Below, piece after piece: positions 1 through 48,472 of a stretch of 64,000 nucleotides of DNA. A program made the translations under genes and the position numbers. Position 1 is the stretch's first letter; the number at the start of each line of letters is the position of its first letter. Source of the stretch: Escherichia phage B9-1; the sequence record OQ420740.1; one strand, 5' to 3'. Below the pieces are notes generated by a model. That model was given only the letters and a program-made list of their open reading frames with translations. It ran no database searches and had not been told where the DNA came from.

Positions 1-882
1 TGGACCCAGAGAGACTGGAACGATAACTATGCTAAAACAGGCTATACGCCTTGTAGTTACCTCCTGTCTCCAACCATTGAAGAGGGTATGAATTTCCTTA
101 CTGCAGTATTTAAGAATTTTGCATCAGCCGCTATGAGAAACAACCTGCCAGTGATTATGCAGATTGGTGAACCGTGGTGGTGGTTCAATACCGATACTCG
201 TAAGCCTTGTATTTATGACTACCCTACAAAGCAGGCGTTTTATGATGAGACTGGTGAATATGCACTAGACATTGGGACTATTGACGATCCTAAAACTGGC
301 GGTGTTTATGACAAGTATGTAGCATTTTGTCGTGGTAAGCTTGGCGCTCGTATTGTAGCCATTTCAAAGGCAATAAAAGCACACGCTGCATCGGCTCAGA
401 TGACAGCTTTACTGTTTTTCCCCACTATTATGGAAACCGAGCTTACGCAAAAACTGAACCTTGCTGACCAATATAAAAAGGAAGCAGGTGCTCTTGATTT
501 CTTCTGCACTGAGTGCTACGATTGGGTGATGCAGGGAGGTATTGAAAAGGCAAAAGAGTCTGTAAACATACCTATCGTTAAGTTAGGTTGGAAACCGTCT
601 GAAATACAATACCTTGCAGGGTTCGTTCCTAGCAAAGAGCTTGCTCCGGTATATGGCTACGACCCAACCAGGAATTACCAAGAATTTTTATGGAGATGTA
701 TTTGCGGAAACATGGCAACTATAGAGTATAGATACCCTGAGGTAAAACAGTATGTGTGGGCATACCCGCAAGTAATGTCTGACAGCATCACTGTTACCGC
801 CAGAGATTCTACCGTTCTGCACATGGGGCAGGTTGCTCTAAAAGGGTATGTAGAAGATGTTGTTCCGCCAGACTTCTCATAA
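1..882 (+). CDS. hypothetical protein, 5'-truncated at window edge (probably virion/tail-associated)
   Basis: Frame 1 is open from nt 1 to the stop at 882; the first in-frame ATG (88) has SD-like GAGGG only 1-2 nt upstream, so the gene most likely starts left of the window; lies directly upstream of tail-fibre genes. Confidence 0.5.
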   Translation, partial: WTQRDWNDNYAKTGYTPCSYLLSPTIEEGMNFLTAVFKNFASAAMRNNLPVIMQIGEPWWWFNTDTRKPCIYDYPTKQAFYDETGEYALDIGTIDDPKTGGVYDKYVAFCRGKLGARIVAISKAIKAHAASAQMTALLFFPTIMETELTQKLNLADQYKKEAGALDFFCTECYDWVMQGGIEKAKESVNIPIVKLGWKPSEIQYLAGFVPSKELAPVYGYDPTRNYQEFLWRCICGNMATIEYRYPEVKQYVWAYPQVMSDSITVTARDSTVLHMGQVALKGYVEDVVPPDFS

Positions 883-894
883 TCAGGAGATAAA

Positions 895-1935
895 ATGTCA
901 AAACCTAGTTTTCCATTAGAGATTTGGGCAGAGGAGGATCAGGTTCTGCCTAACACCCACAGACAGAACAGGCTACGCCCGATTGATGATTTGTGGAGAA
1001 AAGGTTGGGATCTTGGTCAAAAGCCGTCATGTGAAGAACTTAACTATATTTTCAATATGCTCGGGACTTGGGCAAAATATATTGCTGACGAGCAGATCCC
1101 AGCCCAAGAAGGCCGTTATCTGGTACGTGATAATAACCTAAGTGATCTTTTGAACATTCCTGTTGCCCGTAGAAACCTTGGGATTATTACTAAGGAAGAG
1201 GCAGACACCAGGTATGTAAAAGTTACAGGCGATACAATGACAGGCCCCTTAGGTTTGCAGCGTATCAACTTTAAAGCTGCTGAGACAGATAAGGCTTGGA
1301 TAGAGACAACTATTGGCCCAGATAAGACAACTCTCGACTTTGGGTTAAGTGATAACACTGGGGCGTTTGATGATGGTGGCACATCTACAGTAGATGCGTT
1401 TCGTTGGAGATTCCAGCCAACTCAGCCAGATATTAATCCAGAGTTCACTTTGATGTACCTGAACGCGATCACGGCTAACCGTGCGCTGTTGAAAGTGGTA
1501 GGTAATGTTGAAGTTGTCGATAACATGCGGTGTAACAACCTTACCATTAGCAGCACAGCAACATTCACCAACTGTAATGTGGCTAGTCAGTTGACAGCTG
1601 GGTCCGTTTATGTTAATGGCGGCGCAAGTTGTGACAGTATGGTTGTAAGAAGCCAGCATTGTGTTGTCGGTAACAGAAATGTGGTGCGCTCTGTGAATGG
1701 AGTGACGGCTAACGGTAACGGCGATGTAACGATCACCATCCCGCAGACAGGGGTACAGGATATCAGAATCGGTGCAAGACTTGTTGATGGTGTTTCTGAA
1801 TCTCCAGTTCGCAACGGCTACGTTGTCACAGGTTGGCATTTTGGTGATAAAAAAGAGATGCGTGGTTCAACCTACTGGGCAGGACCTTTACAAAAACTTG
1901 TAAACGGTCAATGGATCACTGTTAATTATGCGTAG
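895..1935 (+). CDS. tail fibre protein, paralog A
   Basis: 346 aa; SD AGGAGA upstream of ATG; N-terminal ~70 aa and C-terminal ~130 aa (ending QKLVNGQWITVNYA) paralogous to 2951..3994; immediately followed by a Tfa-type chaperone gene. Confidence 0.6.
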   Translation: MSKPSFPLEIWAEEDQVLPNTHRQNRLRPIDDLWRKGWDLGQKPSCEELNYIFNMLGTWAKYIADEQIPAQEGRYLVRDNNLSDLLNIPVARRNLGIITKEEADTRYVKVTGDTMTGPLGLQRINFKAAETDKAWIETTIGPDKTTLDFGLSDNTGAFDDGGTSTVDAFRWRFQPTQPDINPEFTLMYLNAITANRALLKVVGNVEVVDNMRCNNLTISSTATFTNCNVASQLTAGSVYVNGGASCDSMVVRSQHCVVGNRNVVRSVNGVTANGNGDVTITIPQTGVQDIRIGARLVDGVSESPVRNGYVVTGWHFGDKKEMRGSTYWAGPLQKLVNGQWITVNYA

Positions 1936-1949
1936 ATCGGAGGACTAGC

Positions 1950-2534
1950 ATGAAAATACTTCAAGAGTTTAAACTTTACCAACCGGGATCTGGCGAATAC
2001 CACACCAACAAGGAGACCAAGGAGCTGACTCCTCAGGAGGTTGAGGATTACACAGCATACACTGGATATTTTTTACGTAATGATGATGGCGATTGGTATG
2101 TGCAATCACGAACACTGCGACAAGAAAATCCAGGCTGTATCTTCTTACTTGTTGACGAGAAGGGTATTCTTAAGACATCTACAGAAGAACCTGATGCCTT
2201 GTGGCCTGCTCCGGGTCTTCGTGTGGTTATCGCCAAAAAAGAAGAGGTACCAGAAAACATTATGCTCCACCACGACGCTTTGCGTTTAGTTGGTGATGAA
2301 TTTGTCACAGACAATGAATTCTTTGTTCAACAGGCAGAGGGTGTCATAGAGACAGAACTTGCTTGGGCTACTGCTAGAATTGGTGCCTATCAAGACATGA
2401 TTGACCTTGAATACGATCTTACTGATGACCAAAAACGCAACATCAGAGATTTGAAAATGTACAGGGTAAAACTTCTTGAAATAGATACATCTAAAGCCCC
2501 TGACATTTTCTTCCCGGAACGACCTACCCTCTAA
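1950..2534 (+). CDS. tfa: tail fibre assembly protein (Tfa / Caudo_TAP-like chaperone)
   Basis: 194 aa; SD GGAGGA; C-terminus YRVKLLEIDTSKAPDIFFPERP matches the conserved C-terminal signature of lambda Tfa / P2 G-type tail-fibre assembly proteins; positioned right after a fibre gene. Confidence 0.65.
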   Translation: MKILQEFKLYQPGSGEYHTNKETKELTPQEVEDYTAYTGYFLRNDDGDWYVQSRTLRQENPGCIFLLVDEKGILKTSTEEPDALWPAPGLRVVIAKKEEVPENIMLHHDALRLVGDEFVTDNEFFVQQAEGVIETELAWATARIGAYQDMIDLEYDLTDDQKRNIRDLKMYRVKLLEIDTSKAPDIFFPERPTL

Positions 2535-2545
2535 GAGGAGGTGTT

Positions 2546-2860
2546 GTGGAGTTGGATTTGGCGGCATTGTACGGTATCTGCATGGGTACCGTTGTCCCGA
2601 TCTGTGTATGGGCTTTCAACCAGTGGCACACCAAATGGAAAGGCATTTCCAAGAGGTTGGATGAGCTGGAGAAAGACCTCATTTTAGTGAAAAATAGCAT
2701 GGTTACAAAAGATAGACTTGATTCCATTATTGAAACCCGGTTAAGTAAGCTAGAGGCTGATATCAACGACCTTAAGCAAGATGTCAGGACAGATGTCTCC
2801 GGTATCAGAGCTGATGTGCAAAAGATTTTACACATGCTTGTAGAGCATAGTAAAAGGTAA
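2546..2860 (+). CDS. hypothetical membrane / coiled-coil protein
   Basis: 104 aa; GTG start just after SD AAGAGGAGG; N-terminal hydrophobic helix then charged heptad-like segment; followed by terminator hairpin. Confidence 0.5.
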   Translation: MELDLAALYGICMGTVVPICVWAFNQWHTKWKGISKRLDELEKDLILVKNSMVTKDRLDSIIETRLSKLEADINDLKQDVRTDVSGIRADVQKILHMLVEHSKR

Positions 2861-2870
2861 ACAAAGGCCA

Positions 2871-2903
2871 GAACGGCAAGGATGCCGTTCTTGCATTTTG
2901 TTC
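2871..2903 (+). terminator. rho-independent terminator
   Basis: 8-bp stem GAACGGCA/TGCCGTTC with AGGA loop followed by TTGCATTTTGTT. Confidence 0.6.
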
Positions 2904-2950
2904 TCTAAAGTGTTAAAATAGTCCTTAAGGAATTTTCTCAGGAGAACGTG

Positions 2951-3994
2951 ATGACTAAACCAGTTATCCCTCTTGATATTTGGGCCAATCAGGATGTTGT
3001 GCTTGAAAATACGGGAGAATTGAATAAGTCCCAACCAAAAAAAGAAGAGAGATTGAAAGGTTGGGATATGACACAAAGAGTGGCATGTGAAGTTGTTAAC
3101 TTTGAACTTCACATGCTTTCTGCGTGGTTAAAGCATTTAACAGAAGATGTTGTCCCAGGATGGGATAATAGATTCTTAAGGGTCACTAATAATCTGGCAG
3201 ACGTTCCAGACAAAGCTGCTGCACGTCAAGTTCTCAATGTATACTCGCCTGAAGAAATGGATGACCTTTATGTTGACAAGACTGGAGACACAATGATCCA
3301 GACTCAAACTTTAGGTCTTCAAAGAATTGAGTTTGCATCTGCGTCAACAGACAATGCGGCGATATACACCACCATAACTCCAGACAAGACGATGATGGAT
3401 TTCTGGATTATGGACAACATCGGTGGCGCTGACGGCACAGACCTTGATGATCCTTCTCACCAAATAGACGGTTTCCGTTGGAGATTTCAACCTTCTGGTG
3501 GGCAGCCTGTGTTTTCGGCTATGAAGCTCAATGCTATAACTGCCAACCGTGCAAGACTGGCTATCCAAGGAAATCTTGAATGCAATGATGCAAAAAGCTC
3601 CTCTGCAAATGCCAATGCGGTAACGATACCAAGAGCCACTGTTAATGGACAACAATCCTGCGGCAGCGCTCAAATAGGTGGAAGAGTAGATTGTAACGAT
3701 AAAACCGCCAGGGGTCAATATGCAACAGTTGGTGGGAGAAACGTGGTCCGCAGGGTAAATGGTAGTAGCGCAGATAGCAGTGGTAACCTTACTATCCCTA
3801 TGCCTAGTAGGGGTGTTGAAGATGTAAGGATAGCAAACCGTTTCAGAACCACCTACAGAGAATCAAGAGTATACCCTGGGCATGTAATGTGCTCCGGCAA
3901 TTACGCCTATAAACACCCGTATCAAGGTGACTATTGGACTGGTGCTATTCAAAAATTTGTAAACGGTCAATGGATCACGATATCTTATGCTTAA
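2951..3994 (+). CDS. tail fibre protein, paralog B
   Basis: 347 aa from ATG 2951 (SD GGAG 6 nt upstream; track ORF begins at GTG 2948); conserved N-terminus and C-terminus (QKFVNGQWITISYA) shared with 895..1935, divergent central region. Confidence 0.6.
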   Translation: MTKPVIPLDIWANQDVVLENTGELNKSQPKKEERLKGWDMTQRVACEVVNFELHMLSAWLKHLTEDVVPGWDNRFLRVTNNLADVPDKAAARQVLNVYSPEEMDDLYVDKTGDTMIQTQTLGLQRIEFASASTDNAAIYTTITPDKTMMDFWIMDNIGGADGTDLDDPSHQIDGFRWRFQPSGGQPVFSAMKLNAITANRARLAIQGNLECNDAKSSSANANAVTIPRATVNGQQSCGSAQIGGRVDCNDKTARGQYATVGGRNVVRRVNGSSADSSGNLTIPMPSRGVEDVRIANRFRTTYRESRVYPGHVMCSGNYAYKHPYQGDYWTGAIQKFVNGQWITISYA

Positions 3995-4003
3995 AGAGGG
4001 TAA

Positions 4004-4270
4004 ATGAAATTAACTCAGTTTTTATGGGGGTTGGTTGCGGCATCTGATGACCCTACGAAAGTGTCCCAATCTAAGCTATGGTCAAACATAGGCATGGCAG
4101 TGATGACTGGGGTGTTTATTCATATGGGGTACAATGATACGCTTCCTGAATGGTATGCGTGGATATACGCACCTTCGGTAGCTTGCCCCCAGCTTATTAG
4201 CAAATTCATCTCGCTCCGGTGGGGTTGCCAGCACCCTGACCACGTTAAAAACGAAGAGCAAAAAGCTTAA
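4004..4270 (+). CDS. hypothetical small protein
   Basis: 88 aa ORF with SD AGAGGG; hydrophobic central segment; function unknown. Confidence 0.45.
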   Translation: MKLTQFLWGLVAASDDPTKVSQSKLWSNIGMAVMTGVFIHMGYNDTLPEWYAWIYAPSVACPQLISKFISLRWGCQHPDHVKNEEQKA

Positions 4271-4279
4271 GGAGAAATC

Positions 4280-6025
4280 ATGGCGCAAGACATGACAAGC
4301 TTTGAGCAGGCGGTAGATCAAGTAATTGTTGATTCTGAACGTTTGCACTTGGTTGTCAACGGCAACGCTGTGGATGAAGTTGTCGTAGAGGATGGGACCA
4401 CTATCCCTACGGTACGAAAAGCCATGCTTGACAACCTTTATTTTAAAACGCCACCGATCCCTTGGGCGTATGGTGCATCCACAACAGTTTTTAACCAGTT
4501 GTATGAGTTTAAAGGGGATACAGGCACTCAGTGGTGGTACGCCCCCGCAGCATCAAAATCTAACCCGGTTAGGATGCCAGCAGATCCTTCACAATCTCCG
4601 AACTGGAGATTATACACCGATTCTGCAGTAATGGCAAAATACTACGCAAAACTTAACAGCCCAAGGTTCGAAGGTGACCCGAGAGTACCTACACCTCCGA
4701 TGGATGATAAGTCAGAGTCTATAGCAAACACAGAGTTTGTTGTTGACTATGTGGATAGCATATTTAAAGCCATGGAGGGGATGAAAGTTACTGTAGGATC
4801 TTTGGTGGTAAAAGGTCTTACAGAACTTGCCAACACCATAGTTGGGGGCACCCTTACCTTACACGGACCTGTTAATGGAGCAGATTCTACTGCACGCTTC
4901 AGGAACCTAATCCTTACGGCAAATACTTCTACACTAACTTTTGCGTGGAGCGATCCTAAGCATGCAGACTGGAGAAGCACAGAGCTGCAACCTCATGAAG
5001 TATCAACTCACAGAGTTATAGCTGACACTATAACTTCTGGGAAACCAGTGGCTAATAACAACGATGTGCATTTTGATGGTCTAGGTAATAACTTTTTTGA
5101 CTACGTGTACATTCGTGGTAATGCCATGAAGGCAGCCACCGAACCGACATTGCAGGTTGATGGGACCACTAGGGTTAAGAACCTTGAGGTGACAGGCACC
5201 GTTACAGGGATAACCTACTCTGTAGATGGCACCATGATCTACCCTAGCTATATTGAAAGCACGGGAGATGCACTGATCAATGGAGATTTAGAGGTTGGTG
5301 GATCTATAGTCATTCGTGGCACAGCATCTGTCCAGAACATATCTTTAAATACTCTGAGGGTGAATGAGCGTGCCACTTTTGAAGGAGAGGGGCTTACAGC
5401 CAACAAAGGTGTAATTACCGAGCTGACAACCACCACTCTAACTGCAACAACTGCAAACTCTGAAAACTGCAACGTTACCAGAAACTTGCAGGTAAATGGA
5501 GATGTTAGTTTAAACGCAGCAGGGACGGGCACTACCTACCTTCACAACCTTGAAATATCAGGTACAGTGACTGGGTGGCTGCCAGACTTCTCTAATGTCA
5601 ACTTTGTCTGTAATGGCATTAACTCCAGTGGCAAGATAACCACCTCTCAAGAAATTGAAGCTGGTAAAACTATTACTGCCCCTGCTTTCCATGCAGGGAA
5701 GGTGGAGTTTGACTTAGAGGAGGCTGACGCATCTAGTGGGACATGGACACCTAACGGGCAGGCCAATATGTATGTTGTCCACGCGAAAGGGGATTTTACA
5801 ATAGGGCAATGGCCTGGAACATCGGCTGAAGATAAACCTTACCCGTTCACTGCAATCATCTATGTCATTCAAGATGCTGTAGGCCACAACGTGACTTTAC
5901 ACGATAAATATGCCATACTGTCGGCTACTCCTGTTATTAACAACAAAGCCAACAGTGTCACCTTGCTACAATTGACATATTGTGGTGTTGGTGATATTGT
6001 GGATGTGGTTATTGCACAACGTTAA
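4280..6025 (+). CDS. tail fibre / tail spike-like protein (beta-repeat rich)
   Basis: 581 aa; strong SD AAGGAGA; Gly/Thr/Asn-rich repeated segments (TGTVTGITYS, EISGTVTGW) typical of fibre shafts; in the fibre gene cluster. Confidence 0.55.
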   Translation: MAQDMTSFEQAVDQVIVDSERLHLVVNGNAVDEVVVEDGTTIPTVRKAMLDNLYFKTPPIPWAYGASTTVFNQLYEFKGDTGTQWWYAPAASKSNPVRMPADPSQSPNWRLYTDSAVMAKYYAKLNSPRFEGDPRVPTPPMDDKSESIANTEFVVDYVDSIFKAMEGMKVTVGSLVVKGLTELANTIVGGTLTLHGPVNGADSTARFRNLILTANTSTLTFAWSDPKHADWRSTELQPHEVSTHRVIADTITSGKPVANNNDVHFDGLGNNFFDYVYIRGNAMKAATEPTLQVDGTTRVKNLEVTGTVTGITYSVDGTMIYPSYIESTGDALINGDLEVGGSIVIRGTASVQNISLNTLRVNERATFEGEGLTANKGVITELTTTTLTATTANSENCNVTRNLQVNGDVSLNAAGTGTTYLHNLEISGTVTGWLPDFSNVNFVCNGINSSGKITTSQEIEAGKTITAPAFHAGKVEFDLEEADASSGTWTPNGQANMYVVHAKGDFTIGQWPGTSAEDKPYPFTAIIYVIQDAVGHNVTLHDKYAILSATPVINNKANSVTLLQLTYCGVGDIVDVVIAQR

Positions 6026-6033
6026 TATATCTG

Positions 6034-6060
6034 ACCGCTCCTGACGGGGCGGTTTTCTTA
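6034..6060 (+). terminator. putative rho-independent terminator
   Basis: Hairpin ACCGC...GCGGT followed by TTTTCTTAT directly after the stop of 4280..6025. Confidence 0.5.
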
Positions 6061-6073
6061 TCTGGAGAACACA

Positions 6074-9000
6074 ATGCTTCCAATCCCTTTGCTAAAACTT
6101 GGTCGTCATTTCCTCGATAAGAGGGGTGGAGTTAAGGAACTTGCTGTTCTGTCATACCCAATAGACAACAGTGACGGTACAAGCACTACAGTAGCTTATG
6201 TAAATAGCTTAGCTATACTTTTTGACGACGGTCAGCTTAATATTACTGGCTATAACAAGTTCGGGGAGTGTCGCACTGGGGATCGTAACCCTATAAACTA
6301 CCCGAGCGAGACGGCCTGGAATGTCGATCATGTGTGGAGAGCAGACCGTGCGTTTGTGATCCGGACTTTTGATAACCAGTTTTTCTACATCGGCTGCACT
6401 GCAGGTCTTATCGGATCCACTGCGGCAGGTGGTAACGATGTTTGCGTAAACGAGTGGACACCTCTTCCGGAACAGATTGTTCAAGGATTGCACCTTGACA
6501 CCCACCCAGAGCGCCTTATCGAGGTAATGGGTGGTATTAACAACACTGTTTGGGTTATGGCAGAGGCTGAGGGTGACGGCATTTTACACCTGTACGGGTC
6601 TGGTAACAACACCTACGGATCTTTACATGTAGATAAGAACCAGCATGCAACTCCTGTAAAGATTGGTGAAACATCAGAAAATCCTGAAACAGGCCCTTGG
6701 AAAAACCCAAGTATCAACTGCGAGGTGCATGACAACTCTGTTATTTTCGGTGGTCCTAGAGGTTTCTGGATTGCTGGGTACGACTTTCTGAGAAACAATA
6801 GTAGAAACACTCTCGTTTGGCCTCCTGCTCAGATTACCCGTGACGATTTGAGAGGAATTCCTGCAGATGAGGAGTGGAAAGGGTTCATGTGCGGTCCGAA
6901 TGGGGCAGTGGTTGCAACACAAAGAATGCACAGACCTGATGACCAACAACTTGTTAACGTATTTTATGGTCAAAACGTTTGGGGAGATGATACCTGGCGT
7001 GCTTTGAATATAACCTACACCCATGAGGTGATAATGGCTCGTGGGTACGGCACAAGTGGCATTTTCTTCAACAATGGTACTAAGCAGTATCGTGGCTTCT
7101 CTCGAAACCTGTGCAACGATATTGGCGCACAATCTGCAAACAATAATCCCCGTGCCGATTTTGTTCATTACCAGGCCCTTGCTACGGCCAAATATGTTGA
7201 GCAACGTTTGCCAGTTAGCTGGACAGAGAGTGTTTATTTCCAAGGCATCCATAGAGAAGGTTTTTTAGGGACCTTTACTGTTGTTAATGGTAAACTTTGG
7301 TGGTCAGGTATCCCAAGGGGAAGTTTTGCAGGCTCTAATAACCTGTTTGGCGGTAGACTTAATAGTCAAGGGTTCACAGAGGTTCCTGAGAATTGGTATA
7401 AAAATGTCCCAGTAGATAGTTGGGGTGTTGATGATATTTTTGACGTTAACGGTGTTAGCAGCGTTAGCAATATTTACATTGGTGACACGGTCAAGATGAA
7501 ATTGAAGCCTCAGCCAGAGGGGGCTACGTTCATTATTGACAAGATTGAGCTGGTAAATGCTGCGGGTACGGTTGTTACAGATGCAAATTACCAATTCTCC
7601 ACCAACTGGAACCACGGCGGGGCCAACGAAGTTGTTGTTACTCAGTATAACAGGAATGTTAACAGACGTGGCCTGTACTCTGTAAAAATAACCTATCATG
7701 ACAAGCATGGCACAGGAAGAACTCACACGACAAGGACTTTGAACTGGAACACCATAGTTCCTGCGTATCCTTCTGACGGTAAGTGGCATACCGTTGGTAG
7801 AAACAAGCAGTTCCATGTTAACGATACTGTATACTTCGGGCTGAATGGGACTCAGCCTGCGGTAGAAGGAGATACATCGTATATGGTCCGACTCCACAGA
7901 ATGGATGCTGGATCAGTCACCTATGATGTTACCCAAGAGATTTATGATCAGAGACGAAATACCTACAACAACTTAGTGCAGACACAGGCCGTATGGGAGT
8001 TCAACCCTAACGGCAGAGGCGGTAAAATGTTGCAGGTTAACGAGCAAAACGGAACGTCGTTGACTGTCCACGAACACCCAGACCCTTGGCCTGATCCTGG
8101 AAAACCTCACCCAGGTGCTCGTACACTGAAAATTGTCAGCCATGATGCAGGATATTTCGGAATACGCTGGGAAGCCACAGTAAGATATGCAGACGGGACA
8201 ACAAACAACATAGGGATTACACTTGGAGGCACCAGTGAAGATAGCTCTCTGAAAATTGCCTACACCCCTAGGGGCATCTCTATTGATAATATGGATGTTG
8301 TTCGCAATGGTTACGGCGATGTGAATGTCAAAGTTACTCTTGGCGAACATCTTGGTGGGGAAAGGATCATCATGTATGCCTTTGATCATGACCCGCGAAC
8401 CAATGGAACTTATGCAAATCAGGCATGGAGTTACCTGATAAATGCACCTGAGCCGAATACTAAAGAGTTCTACTACGGTATGAAGCGAGATGTATGCAAG
8501 AAAACAGGAACACATGACTGGATTGCTATCTGCGTTAAAGATGAGCGCACAGCTTGGGATGAGCCTGTTAATAGATGGTTCATAGGTATTCCTACCAGAA
8601 GCGATAAGTATATCGCAGAATACATTGTGTGCATGGGCGGTACCAACCTAAATATGTGTTGGAACGAAGATGCAAACAAATACTCTGATTATGACTATAT
8701 GAGAGATTACTCTTGTAATCAGTGGTTTAACCAATCAACAGGGTATCCTCCACGACAGGCGAGAGTAAACCCTGCAATCTTTACAGATACGCAGGTTTTC
8801 TTGACAAAACAGGCCAACGAGGTTCAGACCTTCAAGAACAAATACGACCCTAACAAGTGGTTTTATAACTGTTATGGCGCATTTTTCTGGGGTCCTGGCG
8901 AACTGCCTAATGGAGGATCTTGCTTCGAGGCTGCAACTTACGCCAGTGACAGGTTCATGGGGCAGGTTAAGAAGTACAAGATAATCCCAGGGCCTGAAAC

Positions 9001-11710
9001 TTTAGGCAACGCTGTTGACCCATATATCATCATGACAGCACTAAGATCGAACATGGACGGAACATCCATATCTATGCAAGTTCCAGTAACAAACGGGTAC
9101 AAACGTGTTGTGATGATCATTAAGTGCGACTTAATAGGTAAGCAAGTTCTTGCAGAAAACGGAACCTCAACACATCTATTCGAGACTGCTCTGCATTATC
9201 AGTTTGCTGATTCACCTTTTGCAGGGGATAAGAGAATATCTGATACAGACAACACTCGATGCAAGAAATTTATGCTTGGTGGTGGATGGTGGTGGTATGA
9301 ATTTGATTTAACAGACAAATTCACTGACACGTCTAAAGTGGTGACAGGGCTTCGTCTAGATCTTGGCGAAAACATGCACAAAAGTGTTTGTGATGGCACC
9401 TACGGTGACCCAACAATCTACTTAAAGTATGTCTCTTTTGAGCATCCGGAAGATGTTGTTTACGGTCCAAAACTGAGATTGTTTGGCAGTTGGATTGCAA
9501 AAGACAGGGTAGGCATGGGTAAAAAGGTAAGAGGGTTCTTGGTTGATGCAGGAACAGAAGACATGCTGGTTAATGCAGTGTGGCCTGAATTACCTGGGAC
9601 TCAGTGGGATAACTCAGCCAAGTCCATAAACTGGTTCAACATTCACAGAGCTATGTGGACAACTAACTGCTACCTGTGGAAAGAGTTGAATGACGGCGCT
9701 TTCGGGTTTACAGGTGGCAGAAGAATGGCAATCATTTGCTGGACAACGCTGCAAAGATGTTATGACCATGACTACGAGATTGGGGGTAGGGCATGGAAAA
9801 ATATTAGGGATAGAATCATAACTAACTTCGCAGACCCTAATGGTGGTGGAGCGTATGGCTTCGACTGCAGCAGGCTCATCCATTTGAACGGGTCCTCTGC
9901 ATATAAGAAAGAGGGTTACTCTGGATCTATGATTGAGTGGGGCCTGGTGAAAGATGCTCGCGTATTGATGGGTCAACAACTTGCTGCTGCAATAGGACCT
10001 AACGCAGTGCAGTCTGTTAAACCAGCGTGGTTCGATATCCCAATATGGTCATCTGGAACACCAGGAACTGCGGCAATCAACCCTACCACTGGGGATCTGG
10101 AAATCTCTTGGGAGGACTTGAAGCAGGTTGGTGGCTGGGATAAGACAGGCTACCAGGTACAATGGTGGAGATCTGACGGATCGTTAGCGGCTGATGAGTT
10201 TGTTAAGGACAATTTCTACACTATGTCCTCTGCAAAAGCACAGCAATTGTTTGGTCAGGCAACTCCGTCAACGATCACCATGTCCATGTGCTGTAAAGAC
10301 AACAGGACTGGAGCCCTGGGACCAAGGGTTGCTAAAGTTTTCTCAGGTATTAAATGGAATCTCCCTGTTCAAAGTGTTTCATGGAAGCAAATAGGTGATA
10401 ACAAGCTGCTGGTTACTCCTGCCTGTCAGTTCAACGCAACTCTTAACGTTGATCCTGCTGTTGCGGCAAACTCAGCTAAAGCTTCTGACTTCTCTGTGTC
10501 TAACACTGCTATGGCAGATGTGAGGAAGATTGATACACTGAATGCCAGAATTACCTGTAAAAACACTTATGGCACATTCCAGATCATCAACAACTTCACA
10601 GATGCTGATTCTAAGGTAGTGAGGACAGCAAGCCAGACTATGCAGTTGGGAACTCTGGCATACTCTGCCTTGATCACTGAACAATCTCCTACCCTTCAGG
10701 GTGGGGGTGTTGGTAAGTTGATCACAACACCTGTGTGGAAGCCAAATGAGTGGGTTGTGTTTGATTTGACTGTAGACTTCTCCAGTGACAATAACTGGAC
10801 ATGGGTAAGGAATTGCTTGTCACAGTTGATGGGTGGTCCAAGCTCTGTTAGTGATAGCCACGACTCTACTGACCCGAGCGTGTTCCAGGTGGGTAAAACT
10901 CACCCAGAAACTGGGGCACAGTTGCCTGACAGGAAGTATGCTTTGGTTTGCATCTCTTACGGAAAAGCAGATGTCACCTTCTCAGGGACGCACACTTATA
11001 ACGGAACTTACAACTTCTCAAGGAAGTATAGTCTCAAGGCTGGTAACATTATAGATGAAGTTGGTGCGTTGTATAACCCAGGTAACGGCATAGGGATTGT
11101 GGGTGGTAAACTGCAGATGCAGGAACCTTCTATTACCCCTTCCAATGTGTCTGGGATTAGAAAGACTTGGGAAAGCAGTAATACCAACATTGCAACAGTG
11201 GATGCTACCACAGGGCTGGTAACATTTAAAGCCCCTGGTAATGTCACTATAAAGTTTGTAGTTACTGATGATGCAGGGCGCAAAACGTCTTCAACATCTT
11301 TTACTGTCAAACAGATGACACCACAGTGGAGAATGTGGATAGGTACAGCAACAAACGGGGCATACCCTAATCCGGCAGGTACTTCTGGTATGAAGACTTT
11401 CTCTACAAGCAAACCGATGGAGTACGGCAGCGGTCCTAAGGTAGGGCAGATGGTGTACTTTGGTGCGTATATTCCTGAAATTATAGGGCTTCCGAGAAGT
11501 CAGCTTCAGTTGCTGTTTGGGGCTGGTGTTGACGATCTTGCCACTTTCGGGTATAGCGACAACATCGAGGCTGCAAGGAGTTCAGGATGGGTAGGGTTCA
11601 GAATGGAGTCTGGAAAGGAAGGCAGGATTCTAGGGACAGCCTCTATAGGTGTTATGTTCCCTGGTGACCAGCAGTATCGTCTGGAAGCCTACGCGACTTT
11701 CTCTCTTTAA
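6074..11710 (+). CDS. large virion-associated protein with C-terminal bacterial Ig-like (Big_2) domain
   Basis: 1878-aa uninterrupted ORF; segment SNTNIATVDATTGLVTFKAPGNVTIKFVVTDDAGRKTSSTSFTV fits the Big_2 fold signature; all antisense ORFs inside are short. Confidence 0.6.
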   Translation: MLPIPLLKLGRHFLDKRGGVKELAVLSYPIDNSDGTSTTVAYVNSLAILFDDGQLNITGYNKFGECRTGDRNPINYPSETAWNVDHVWRADRAFVIRTFDNQFFYIGCTAGLIGSTAAGGNDVCVNEWTPLPEQIVQGLHLDTHPERLIEVMGGINNTVWVMAEAEGDGILHLYGSGNNTYGSLHVDKNQHATPVKIGETSENPETGPWKNPSINCEVHDNSVIFGGPRGFWIAGYDFLRNNSRNTLVWPPAQITRDDLRGIPADEEWKGFMCGPNGAVVATQRMHRPDDQQLVNVFYGQNVWGDDTWRALNITYTHEVIMARGYGTSGIFFNNGTKQYRGFSRNLCNDIGAQSANNNPRADFVHYQALATAKYVEQRLPVSWTESVYFQGIHREGFLGTFTVVNGKLWWSGIPRGSFAGSNNLFGGRLNSQGFTEVPENWYKNVPVDSWGVDDIFDVNGVSSVSNIYIGDTVKMKLKPQPEGATFIIDKIELVNAAGTVVTDANYQFSTNWNHGGANEVVVTQYNRNVNRRGLYSVKITYHDKHGTGRTHTTRTLNWNTIVPAYPSDGKWHTVGRNKQFHVNDTVYFGLNGTQPAVEGDTSYMVRLHRMDAGSVTYDVTQEIYDQRRNTYNNLVQTQAVWEFNPNGRGGKMLQVNEQNGTSLTVHEHPDPWPDPGKPHPGARTLKIVSHDAGYFGIRWEATVRYADGTTNNIGITLGGTSEDSSLKIAYTPRGISIDNMDVVRNGYGDVNVKVTLGEHLGGERIIMYAFDHDPRTNGTYANQAWSYLINAPEPNTKEFYYGMKRDVCKKTGTHDWIAICVKDERTAWDEPVNRWFIGIPTRSDKYIAEYIVCMGGTNLNMCWNEDANKYSDYDYMRDYSCNQWFNQSTGYPPRQARVNPAIFTDTQVFLTKQANEVQTFKNKYDPNKWFYNCYGAFFWGPGELPNGGSCFEAATYASDRFMGQVKKYKIIPGPETLGNAVDPYIIMTALRSNMDGTSISMQVPVTNGYKRVVMIIKCDLIGKQVLAENGTSTHLFETALHYQFADSPFAGDKRISDTDNTRCKKFMLGGGWWWYEFDLTDKFTDTSKVVTGLRLDLGENMHKSVCDGTYGDPTIYLKYVSFEHPEDVVYGPKLRLFGSWIAKDRVGMGKKVRGFLVDAGTEDMLVNAVWPELPGTQWDNSAKSINWFNIHRAMWTTNCYLWKELNDGAFGFTGGRRMAIICWTTLQRCYDHDYEIGGRAWKNIRDRIITNFADPNGGGAYGFDCSRLIHLNGSSAYKKEGYSGSMIEWGLVKDARVLMGQQLAAAIGPNAVQSVKPAWFDIPIWSSGTPGTAAINPTTGDLEISWEDLKQVGGWDKTGYQVQWWRSDGSLAADEFVKDNFYTMSSAKAQQLFGQATPSTITMSMCCKDNRTGALGPRVAKVFSGIKWNLPVQSVSWKQIGDNKLLVTPACQFNATLNVDPAVAANSAKASDFSVSNTAMADVRKIDTLNARITCKNTYGTFQIINNFTDADSKVVRTASQTMQLGTLAYSALITEQSPTLQGGGVGKLITTPVWKPNEWVVFDLTVDFSSDNNWTWVRNCLSQLMGGPSSVSDSHDSTDPSVFQVGKTHPETGAQLPDRKYALVCISYGKADVTFSGTHTYNGTYNFSRKYSLKAGNIIDEVGALYNPGNGIGIVGGKLQMQEPSITPSNVSGIRKTWESSNTNIATVDATTGLVTFKAPGNVTIKFVVTDDAGRKTSSTSFTVKQMTPQWRMWIGTATNGAYPNPAGTSGMKTFSTSKPMEYGSGPKVGQMVYFGAYIPEIIGLPRSQLQLLFGAGVDDLATFGYSDNIEAARSSGWVGFRMESGKEGRILGTASIGVMFPGDQQYRLEAYATFSL

Positions 11711-11720
11711 CAAGTAGTAG

Positions 11721-11755
11721 ATAAAAAAGGGGCCAAATGGCCCCTTTCTTTTTAT
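11721..11755. terminator. bidirectional rho-independent terminator
   Basis: AAAAAAGGGGCCAAATGGCCCCTTTCTTTTT: perfect GGGGCC/GGCCCC stem flanked by an A-run and a T-run, between convergent genes 6074..11710 (+) and 11758..11958 (-). Confidence 0.7.
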
Positions 11756-48095: not shown

Positions 48096-48118
48096 ACACC
48101 ATGAAAGGAGAAAGTAAC

Positions 48119-48472
48119 ATGATCAGCGGTGCAAGTTTTATTATTGGCGCTATTGCTACGGCTTTAATTGTAAACAAGATCCAATCCAAAAACGAAAAAG
48201 AGAGCAACGCCCTTGCAGAATATCCATTTTGGACATTTAACGATAACGAAGATTATATTATAAAGTATAAAAATAAAGAAGGTGACCAAGTAACACCGCG
48301 ACCGATCCCGGCTTACAAGATGCAGGAAACACTATACCGCCTGGAGGCGGGGGGCGCAAAAATTGTGGACTTTTGGGGATACGATCACACAGATCAGGAA
48401 GTTATAAAGCGCCGTATCCGGGCTATTCAGGCCAATATTGAAGTTAGCAAGGGGGGAATATATGAAGATTAA
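48119..48472 (+). CDS. hypothetical membrane-anchored protein
   Basis: ATG 48119 with SD AAAGGAGA (track start 48101 lacks an SD); N-terminal hydrophobic segment ISGASFIIGAIATALIV. Confidence 0.5.
   Translation: MISGASFIIGAIATALIVNKIQSKNEKESNALAEYPFWTFNDNEDYIIKYKNKEGDQVTPRPIPAYKMQETLYRLEAGGAKIVDFWGYDHTDQEVIKRRIRAIQANIEVSKGGIYED

Follow-up and report, generated by a model that had tools for sequence, protein, structure and literature searches.

The window, the 64,000-nucleotide stretch of Escherichia phage B9-1 (OQ420740.1) analysed here, carries at positions 895-4270 two related short tail fibre (STF) genes, STF1 and STF2, a chaperone gene (Tfa) and two genes for small membrane proteins, p104 and p88 (Table 1). 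We consider it likely, with a probability of roughly 0.72, that both fibres are non-redundant, fixed parts of the baseplate that bind the lipopolysaccharide (LPS) core, and not alternative or switchable receptor binders. A preliminary description of the locus had instead proposed a duplicated host-range module. The homology, gene order, conservation, selection, and hairpin and promoter-like signals reported below come from our analysis; presence in the virion, essentiality and the need for LPS are taken from the literature.

Judged by its nearest matches, the window is that of a Vequintavirus (an rV5-like E. coli myophage). Megablast of its first 6.1 kb matched 117 phage records, the closest being Escherichia phage vB_EcoM-ECP32 (98.8% identity), with FV3 at 96.8%. 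The locus is the STF module of an rV5-like phage and has already been described in the literature. It has the same genes, in identical order and at 95-99% protein identity, as rV5 gp33/gp32/gp31/gp30/gp29, FV3_00033-00029 and BASEL bas54/bas55_0035-0039; there is no substantive difference from these cassettes, and the window represents a further isolate of the genus. In FV3 the counterparts of the locus genes are genes 33 to 28, all annotated with their similarity to an rV5 gene, and the BASEL annotation of the relatives lists two ‘short tail fiber protein’ genes and one ‘tail fiber chaperone’. The two-fibre finding itself is therefore already published, and what we add (slot-specific anchors, an insertion history and a separate promoter-like element) is incremental.

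The rV5-like phages are among the commonest coliphage isolates and are candidates for therapy, and they are thought to engage the LPS core irreversibly through their short fibres. If the fibres are fixed and non-redundant, host-range engineering should swap tips and keep both anchors, and the two should not be treated as interchangeable receptor modules.

Virion, essentiality and receptor evidence

Kropinski et al. (2013) reported that gp30 and gp33 of rV5 are 42.3% identical and detected gp30, gp32 and gp33 by mass spectrometry of the virion. Maffei et al. (2021) described two paralogous short tail fibres and a chaperone in the Vequintavirinae sensu stricto, homologous to the single phi92-like locus and to Mu GpS/GpU, and found that all tested BASEL Vequintavirinae fail on waaC and waaG mutants. 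Phage LL12 requires the outer-core glucose I of LPS. Cryo-EM in the RBPseg study (2025) showed STF density in Bas49 and Bas54 at 7-9.5 Å, and a Mu-like tip was remarked upon. In the 2026 phi92 structure, gp147 is fibre III, present as six trimers under the wedge and proposed to make adsorption to the outer membrane stable and irreversible. Transposon sequencing of Bas54 on K-12 (HIDEN-SEQ, 2025) scored bas54_0035-0040 all as essential, with 0-3 TA sites hit per gene.

A mechanism consistent with these results would have STF1 and STF2 both made late, folded by a single Tfa and both built into the virion. They would be mounted on the baseplate wedge through two anchor types, which may have separate docking sites or follow a fixed docking pattern, and would act together in an irreversible LPS-core step for which outer-core glucose I is needed. 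The LPS core is the probable receptor of each fibre.

Architecture of the two fibres

All described open reading frames (ORFs) are confirmed, with both fibre genes on the + strand. The proteins of 346 and 347 aa are diverged paralogs, as the preliminary description had supposed: they align end to end with 153 of 356 positions identical (43%, E 4e-95), and their global alignment score is 697 versus -79 ± 19 for shuffled sequence. The shared C-terminal motif that it had pointed out is also present. The C-termini read LQKLVNGQWITVNYA and IQKFVNGQWITISYA, and this motif is the only repeat at the DNA level (63 nt, 78%, 1872-1934 and 3931-3993). The idea of conserved termini around a divergent centre did not hold, as the centre (aa 101-205) is the best conserved part at 57% identity, with 37% in aa 1-100, 33% in the shaft (aa 206-285) and 45% in the tip (aa 286-346). 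For STF2, the listed start is GTG 2948, with a ribosome-binding site (RBS), AGGAGA, at 2940-2945; ATG 2951, which gives 347 aa, is the true start because the spacing from AGGAGA fits it and relatives are annotated with it.

Both fibres match phrog_4465 over their full length (STF1, E 2.5e-171, aa 1-346 on profile positions 1-342; STF2, E 6.5e-164). At the N-terminal end, STF1 aa 1-108 and STF2 aa 1-83 match the short tail fibre of phiTE (PDB 9cuy_c; E 1.2e-19 and 1.5e-8, respectively), residues 3-92 of which are the joint that docks on wedge protein 1. At the other end, STF1 aa 286-343 aligns with aa 440-501 of Mu gpS (5yvq_A, E 1.2e-6), and the only significant PDB match of the STF1 AF2 model in Foldseek is again 5yvq_A, the complex of the Mu fibre with its chaperone (E 8.5e-8). 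STF1 aa 1 to ~100 is a baseplate anchor, and aa ~286-346 is a Mu-S-like receptor-binding tip. By sequence comparison, STF2 has the architecture of STF1, but with a distinct ‘slot-2’ type of N-terminal anchor and a more diverged tip. STF1 stands straight after the baseplate wedge genes (or the deacetylase fibre) and is followed by Tfa; STF2 lies 3' of p104, behind its own promoter-like element and outside the standard STF slot.

Origin of the second fibre

Besides Vequintavirus, the genera of Vequintavirinae examined were Avunavirus (Av-05), Seunavirus (GAP31, FENT2, R7), Mydovirus (KpS8) and Certrevirus (phiTE), and in these four the shared order is baseplate genes, a single STF, Tfa, p104, p157, p88 and the lateral tail fibre (LTF). 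The p157 protein (152-157 aa, phrog_7451; precomputed Pfam PF26221, Phage_phiTE_239) is a multi-pass membrane protein with 4-5 predicted transmembrane domains (TMDs). Its gene separates the homologs of p104 and p88 in Avunavirus, Seunavirus, Mydovirus and Certrevirus (e.g., L006:6449-6922 and L003:4519-4977). It is absent from the window, and by organism-name tallies and the 30 records shown none of the 107 p157 records is from Vequintavirus. Two uncultured lineages (L063 and L064/L065) lack both p157 and a second fibre; their order is STF-Tfa-p104-p88, and the p104 stop overlaps the p88 start. In relatives, p104 and p88 are adjacent or translationally coupled, and the STF2 insertion parted them.

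The two-fibre layout of the window recurs in three contigs of 121-140 kb (L015-L017) from metagenome 3300045988, which represent an uncultured sister lineage and whose first fibre is 74% identical to STF1. In one of them (fibres at L015:1844-2884 and L015:3917-4981), the two tips are 85% identical and the N-termini 39%. Over the N-terminal 100 aa, STF2 shares 56% identity with the second L015 fibre and 37% with STF1. By such segmental identities, these contigs clearly record recombination between paralogs of the same genome. Tips can become uniform within a genome or be exchanged. The constant difference between the two slots is therefore the attachment end and not the receptor end, because the L015 tips are 85% alike while the anchors differ.

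Phylogeny gives a consistent picture. In a neighbour-joining tree, STF1 groups with all single-copy fibres (87.5% bootstrap), and STF1+STF2 monophyly receives only 10%. For aa 1-205, STF2 branches with the second fibres of L015 and L017 in a separate clade (91%) that excludes every first-slot fibre, and in the tree of the tip both fibres of L015 and L017 cluster together (100%). Three results are new here. On the tree topology, STF1 is the ortholog of the single fibre of related genera, and the STF2 anchor type is one that STF2 shares, as far as sequence can tell, with an uncultured sister lineage. STF2 itself is, on this phylogenetic placement, an old, separately evolving paralog inserted between p104 and p88, where it lies behind a hairpin and promoter-like element of its own. 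The simplest history would be that p157 was lost and that a hairpin, a promoter and a second fibre were then inserted between p104 and p88; most simply, the insertion of STF2 would predate the split of Vequintavirus and the L015 lineage.

The junction itself retains candidate signals. Gene spacing in the locus is tight, with gaps of 9-14 nt, and the exception is 2861-2950, between p104 and STF2. The RNA of 2861-2905 folds at -20.3 kcal/mol (z -4.9), and the hairpin at 2870-2891 carries one compensatory change, C-G to A-T, in the close relative JeffSchatz (Bas55). The -10 part of the promoter-like element, TGTTAAAATA, is one mismatch away from TggTAaAAtA, the motif that lies before rV5 late genes (Kropinski et al., 2013). 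Neither the two hexamers nor the distance separating them differs between Vequintavirus genomes and the much diverged uncultured L015-L017 lineage. The promoter-like reading rests on this conservation, because a sigma-70 scan did not list the site before STF2; its -35 hexamer matches at three of six positions. The locus may thus consist of two transcription units, one ending with STF1, Tfa and p104 and the other comprising STF2, p88 and the 581-aa fibre, the latter terminating at a hairpin at 6033-6054 that a terminator scan places 3' of the 581-aa fibre gene.

Variation and selection

STF1 and STF2 each show at least 95% amino-acid identity in ~115 Vequintavirus genomes, and Maffei et al. (2021) noted no notable allelic variation of the short-fibre locus. 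Across five genomes, dN/dS is 0.013 for STF1, 0.049 for Tfa, 0.029 for p104, 0.060 for STF2, 0.011 for p88 and 0.038 for the 581-aa fibre, at dS values of 0.17-0.49 (0.37-0.49 for the two fibres). All six genes are strongly constrained, and there is no sign of diversifying selection in these six genes in the five genomes. STF2 has a dN of 0.022 versus 0.0066 for STF1, and its protein evolves ~3-4 times faster.

We found no significant inverted repeats flanking the cassette (the closest candidate pair, 18 nt long, matches at 78%), and profile scans of the products of 88-6025 gave no recombinase match. All relatives examined have the same gene order. The locus is best described as a fixed two-fibre set, and not as a variable or switchable module, because of the at least 95% identity, the low dN/dS, and the lack of an invertase and of flanking inverted repeats. 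The proposal of a host-range module finds no footing in these figures.

Alternative explanations

Several points weigh against fixed, non-redundant fibres. The AF2 monomer model of STF1 is of modest confidence (pLDDT 63, with the N-terminus below 50 and good values only from ~aa 120) and was therefore used for the Mu-S match only. The STF2 tip, 45% identical to that of STF1, has no direct match to Mu gpS in the PDB sequence search. With tips only 45% identical, different ligands are possible. The trees are neighbour-joining, and the basal position of STF2 could reflect a long-branch effect. The published baseplate maps, at 7-9.5 Å, do not tell STF1 and STF2 apart. Essentiality may in part be polar, with insertions in STF1 acting on Tfa, and those in STF2 or p88 on the essential downstream fibre; the HIDEN-SEQ authors argue against widespread polar effects and do not exclude local ones.

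So, do the two fibres confer a dual host range? Each could bind a different LPS core chemotype, with either one sufficing on a given host, much as Kropinski et al. (2013) suggested ‘two chemotypes of LPS’ for the paralogous fibres. The divergence of the tips, and of the shafts at 33%, fits such a division. So does the STF1 tip (window 1750-1932, last ~58 aa), which is 58.6% identical to the tips of unrelated ~52-kb E. coli and Salmonella phages (JEP7, brunost, emiel, vB_SalM_Sz), a similarity which suggests that the fibre tip domain may have been exchanged horizontally between unrelated phages. Against it, both fibres of Bas54 score as essential on one host, there is near-zero variation in the ~115 genomes under strong purifying selection, the L015 tips are 85% alike while their anchors differ, and the tested BASEL Vequintavirinae share the waaC/waaG dependence. 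We regard a dual host range as unlikely, and leave it some weight because the tips differ and the essentiality may be polar. The preliminary description of STF1 and STF2 as alternative receptor-binding fibres is accordingly not supported: different tips could mean different ligands, but both proteins are in virions and, subject to the polarity caveat, both score as essential on the same K-12 host.

Mixed heterotrimers, in which STF1 and STF2 chains would both be needed for one kind of fibre, could also explain why both genes score as essential and why there is a single Tfa. The near-equal lengths, with conserved blocks in register and most conspicuously so in aa 101-205, would suit co-assembly. 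Relatives, however, make the fibre from one gene, and the anchors have split into two separately conserved types. We know of no precedent among Mu-S-type fibres, and we hold heterotrimers to be improbable.

That STF2 is a redundant or decaying duplicate is effectively refuted. Its faster protein evolution is the one observation in favour, but the frame is intact in every genome seen at a dN/dS of 0.060, the gene has its own conserved promoter-like element, it scores as essential, the protein is in virions, and its counterpart in the sister lineage is retained despite 26-55% divergence. Last, the earlier suggestion of a switchable cassette, with the expression or orientation of one fibre toggled as in the G segment of Mu or the C segment of P1, or by phase variation, draws on two related fibre genes and the Mu-S/U relationship and on nothing further. 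It is effectively refuted too and merits almost no credence: there are no meaningful inverted repeats and no recombinase match at 88-6025, the two genes share a strand, each is whole and has an RBS to itself, their order is common to all examined relatives, and both products are in virions.

Relation to known fibre systems

Fibre III of phi92 (gp147) and the STF of phiTE (gp236, 9cuy) have a homologous N-terminal anchor and occupy the same place after the wedge genes, with Tfa and a p104-like gene following. In both phages the fibre is present as six trimers that point downward, with the N-termini docked on the wedge. Unlike the phage studied here, with its two 346/347-aa paralogs and two anchor types, phi92 and phiTE have one STF gene, and the fibre of the flagellotropic phage phiTE is 554 aa long with a coiled coil and Ig-like domains.

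The STF1 tip resembles Mu gpS in sequence and fold, and the chaperone belongs to the same Caudo_TAP family as Mu gpU (TfaMu, 5yvq). Mu carries two alternative S/U pairs that are switched by Gin inversion of the G segment. In the window, in contrast to Mu, we found no inversion system, and there is one chaperone gene for two fibres.

A functional analogue is T4 gp12, which likewise forms six baseplate-mounted, LPS-core-binding trimers and acts in irreversible adsorption. It is encoded by a single gene and uses the chaperone gp57A, with no Tfa. Kropinski et al. (2013) obtained an HHpred match to gp12; PDB sequence searches of STF1 and STF2 returned no gp12 match at E values up to 1.

The tail fibre chaperone

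The preliminary description had placed a Tfa-type chaperone after the first fibre, and profile searches bear this out. The ORF at 1950-2534 scores 45.9 bits with Pfam PF02413 (Caudo_TAP), whose cut-off is 22.1 (E 8.1e-12; aa 121-192 align with profile positions 60-130 of 131), and it matches phrog_136 with E 2e-36. The identification as Tfa stands because the Pfam match exceeds the gathering score and phrog_136 agrees. In an alignment across genera, conservation lies mostly in the C-terminal ~70 aa; the literature describes Tfa proteins as a variable N-terminal fibre-binding domain joined to a conserved C-terminal helical domain. By profile similarity, the protein is a chaperone of the lambda-Tfa/Mu-gpU type, and a modular build fits. 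A search of the window and of the first 50 kb of JeffSchatz detected no second Tfa, and the one Tfa probably folds the tips of both STF1 and STF2.

Small membrane proteins and the holin question

The membrane/coiled-coil ORF that the preliminary description had left unexplained is a real gene. p104 starts at GTG 2546 behind a strong RBS (AAGAGGAGG); by hydropathy, a single strong TMD lies near its N-terminus (aa 5-23), and a helical or coiled-coil region comes after it. Its helical C-terminal part is probably cytoplasmic, because no basic residues precede the TMD and several follow it. It matches phrog_5345 (‘unknown function’, E 1.1e-48) and is conserved in 223 phage records. The p88 protein matches phrog_1322 (‘membrane protein’, E 2.7e-32; 368 phage records). 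It has a short N-terminal helix, two weakly hydrophobic helices of transmembrane length and a variable charged C-terminal tail; the maximum Kyte-Doolittle value is 1.27 (17-aa window), and the AF2 helices (22-43 and 49-73) are at a pLDDT of only 59. In the family alignment, a conserved core runs up to LRWG, and variable charged tails of ~10-50 aa follow. Against Pfam, NCBIfam and PHROG, p104, p88 and the p157 of other genera gave nothing beyond coiled-coil noise or ‘unknown function’ entries, and p88 matched no holin family in Pfam or NCBIfam. DUF2644, the source label of some members of the p88 family, gave no hmmscan match, and we did not meet the name in the literature. The most distant ‘p88-like’ IMG/VR loci (L052-L061, 32% identity) lie among replication genes with no other cassette genes, and we took them to be spurious or uninformative.

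Both proteins occur throughout the Vequintavirinae and the phi92/phAPEC8-like phages, always within the baseplate/fibre block. In the phi92/phAPEC8-like phages (L005:5001-5246, L009:2123-2368 and L040-L051), the p88 homolog is not found after p104; it immediately precedes the wedge gene and abuts the start of that gene or overlaps it. p88 is thus kept in the baseplate block, yet not bound to the fibre gene itself.

Genes beside fibre genes can be holins, as with t after gene 38 in T4 and 17.5 after gene 17 in T7. In the HIDEN-SEQ data for Bas54, bas54_0037 (p104) was hit at 1 of 20 TA sites and bas54_0039 (p88) at 0 of 19. For p104 a polar artefact is less likely, given the hairpin and the separate promoter-like element downstream of it. 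In the same data, bas54_0115, annotated as ‘putative holin’, is non-essential with 27 of its 28 TA sites hit, and the endolysin and both spanins are almost without insertions. The true holin of the rV5-like group seems to differ from the annotated one. The ortholog of bas54_0115 in the window is a 123-aa ORF of the same size with an N-terminal TMD (48101-48472). Among the small proteins scanned from the late block of JeffSchatz (genes 0001-0028, which share names and numbers with those of Bas54), together with p104 and p88, a strong TMD is found only in the spanins and p104. In Bas54 the endolysin (bas54_0202) is far from p88 and the spanins are at the terminase operon, so p88 has no endolysin adjacency. 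In layout, with two putative helices of transmembrane length and a charged tail that varies, p88 resembles a class II-like holin. The window and Bas54 are not collinear around the small essential genes 0101 and 0110, and the holin candidates considered are a partial list. It is doubtful, on balance, that p104 and p88 are a holin or holin-partner pair of rV5-like phages co-transcribed with the fibre genes, and a membrane-associated function in assembling the fibres or the baseplate is no less likely than a role in lysis.

Features of the locus and neighbouring genes

Table 1. Positions in the window of the genes and signals of the short-tail-fibre module and the adjoining lateral fibre gene
Feature	Position	Strand	Basis
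STF1, 346 aa, ortholog of rV5 gp33 / bas54_0035	895..1935	+	phrog_4465
Tfa, 194 aa, rV5 gp32 / bas54_0036	1950..2534	+	Pfam Caudo_TAP, phrog_136
p104, 104 aa, rV5 gp31 / bas54_0037; last gene before the hairpin	2546..2860	+	phrog_5345
Terminator-like hairpin, 9-bp stem, 4-nt loop, then T-rich run	2870..2891	+	Scan, RNA fold
Promoter-like element before STF2, TTGCAT-N17-(TGt)TAAAAT	2891..2919	+	Motif, conservation
STF2, 347 aa, rV5 gp30 / bas54_0038	2951..3994	+	phrog_4465
p88, 88 aa, rV5 gp29 / bas54_0039	4004..4270	+	phrog_1322
Lateral tail fibre, 581 aa, rV5 gp28 / bas54_0040	4280..6025	+	phrog_4549, E 2e-251

The window opens with an interior piece (88-882) of a lateral tail fibre gene, the ortholog of rV5 gp34. 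This fragment matches Pfam PF23845 (‘non-contractile tail sheath protein TIM barrel’), and the full gene is labelled in BASEL as a glycosidase/deacetylase fibre. A 2026 preprint ties the poly-GlcNAc deacetylase domain of the gp34-type fibre to a short domain of the N4 tail sheath gp65 and to NGR glycan binding. Downstream of the module, the next gene (6074-11710) encodes a 1878-aa fibre with Ig-like/intimin domains, and a terminator-like hairpin of its own lies at 11726-11747. On K-12, Bas54 can do without the ortholog of this gene (0041), but insertions in it are depleted in one clinical isolate (log2FC -2.23). It is this 1878-aa fibre gene, rather than the short fibres, that behaves like a host-range determinant.

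Between 16 and 21 GenBank records of the MG0656xx series (e.g., MG065635 and MG065662), named ‘Campylobacter phage’ with C. jejuni as host, are ~94.8% identical across the whole locus (window 1-6100); these are apparently rV5-like coliphages that were given a wrong label or entered as contaminants. No tRNA gene was detected by ARAGORN in the 64 kb of the window. The coding strand and the GC skew switch at ~12-18 kb and again beyond ~58 kb of the window.

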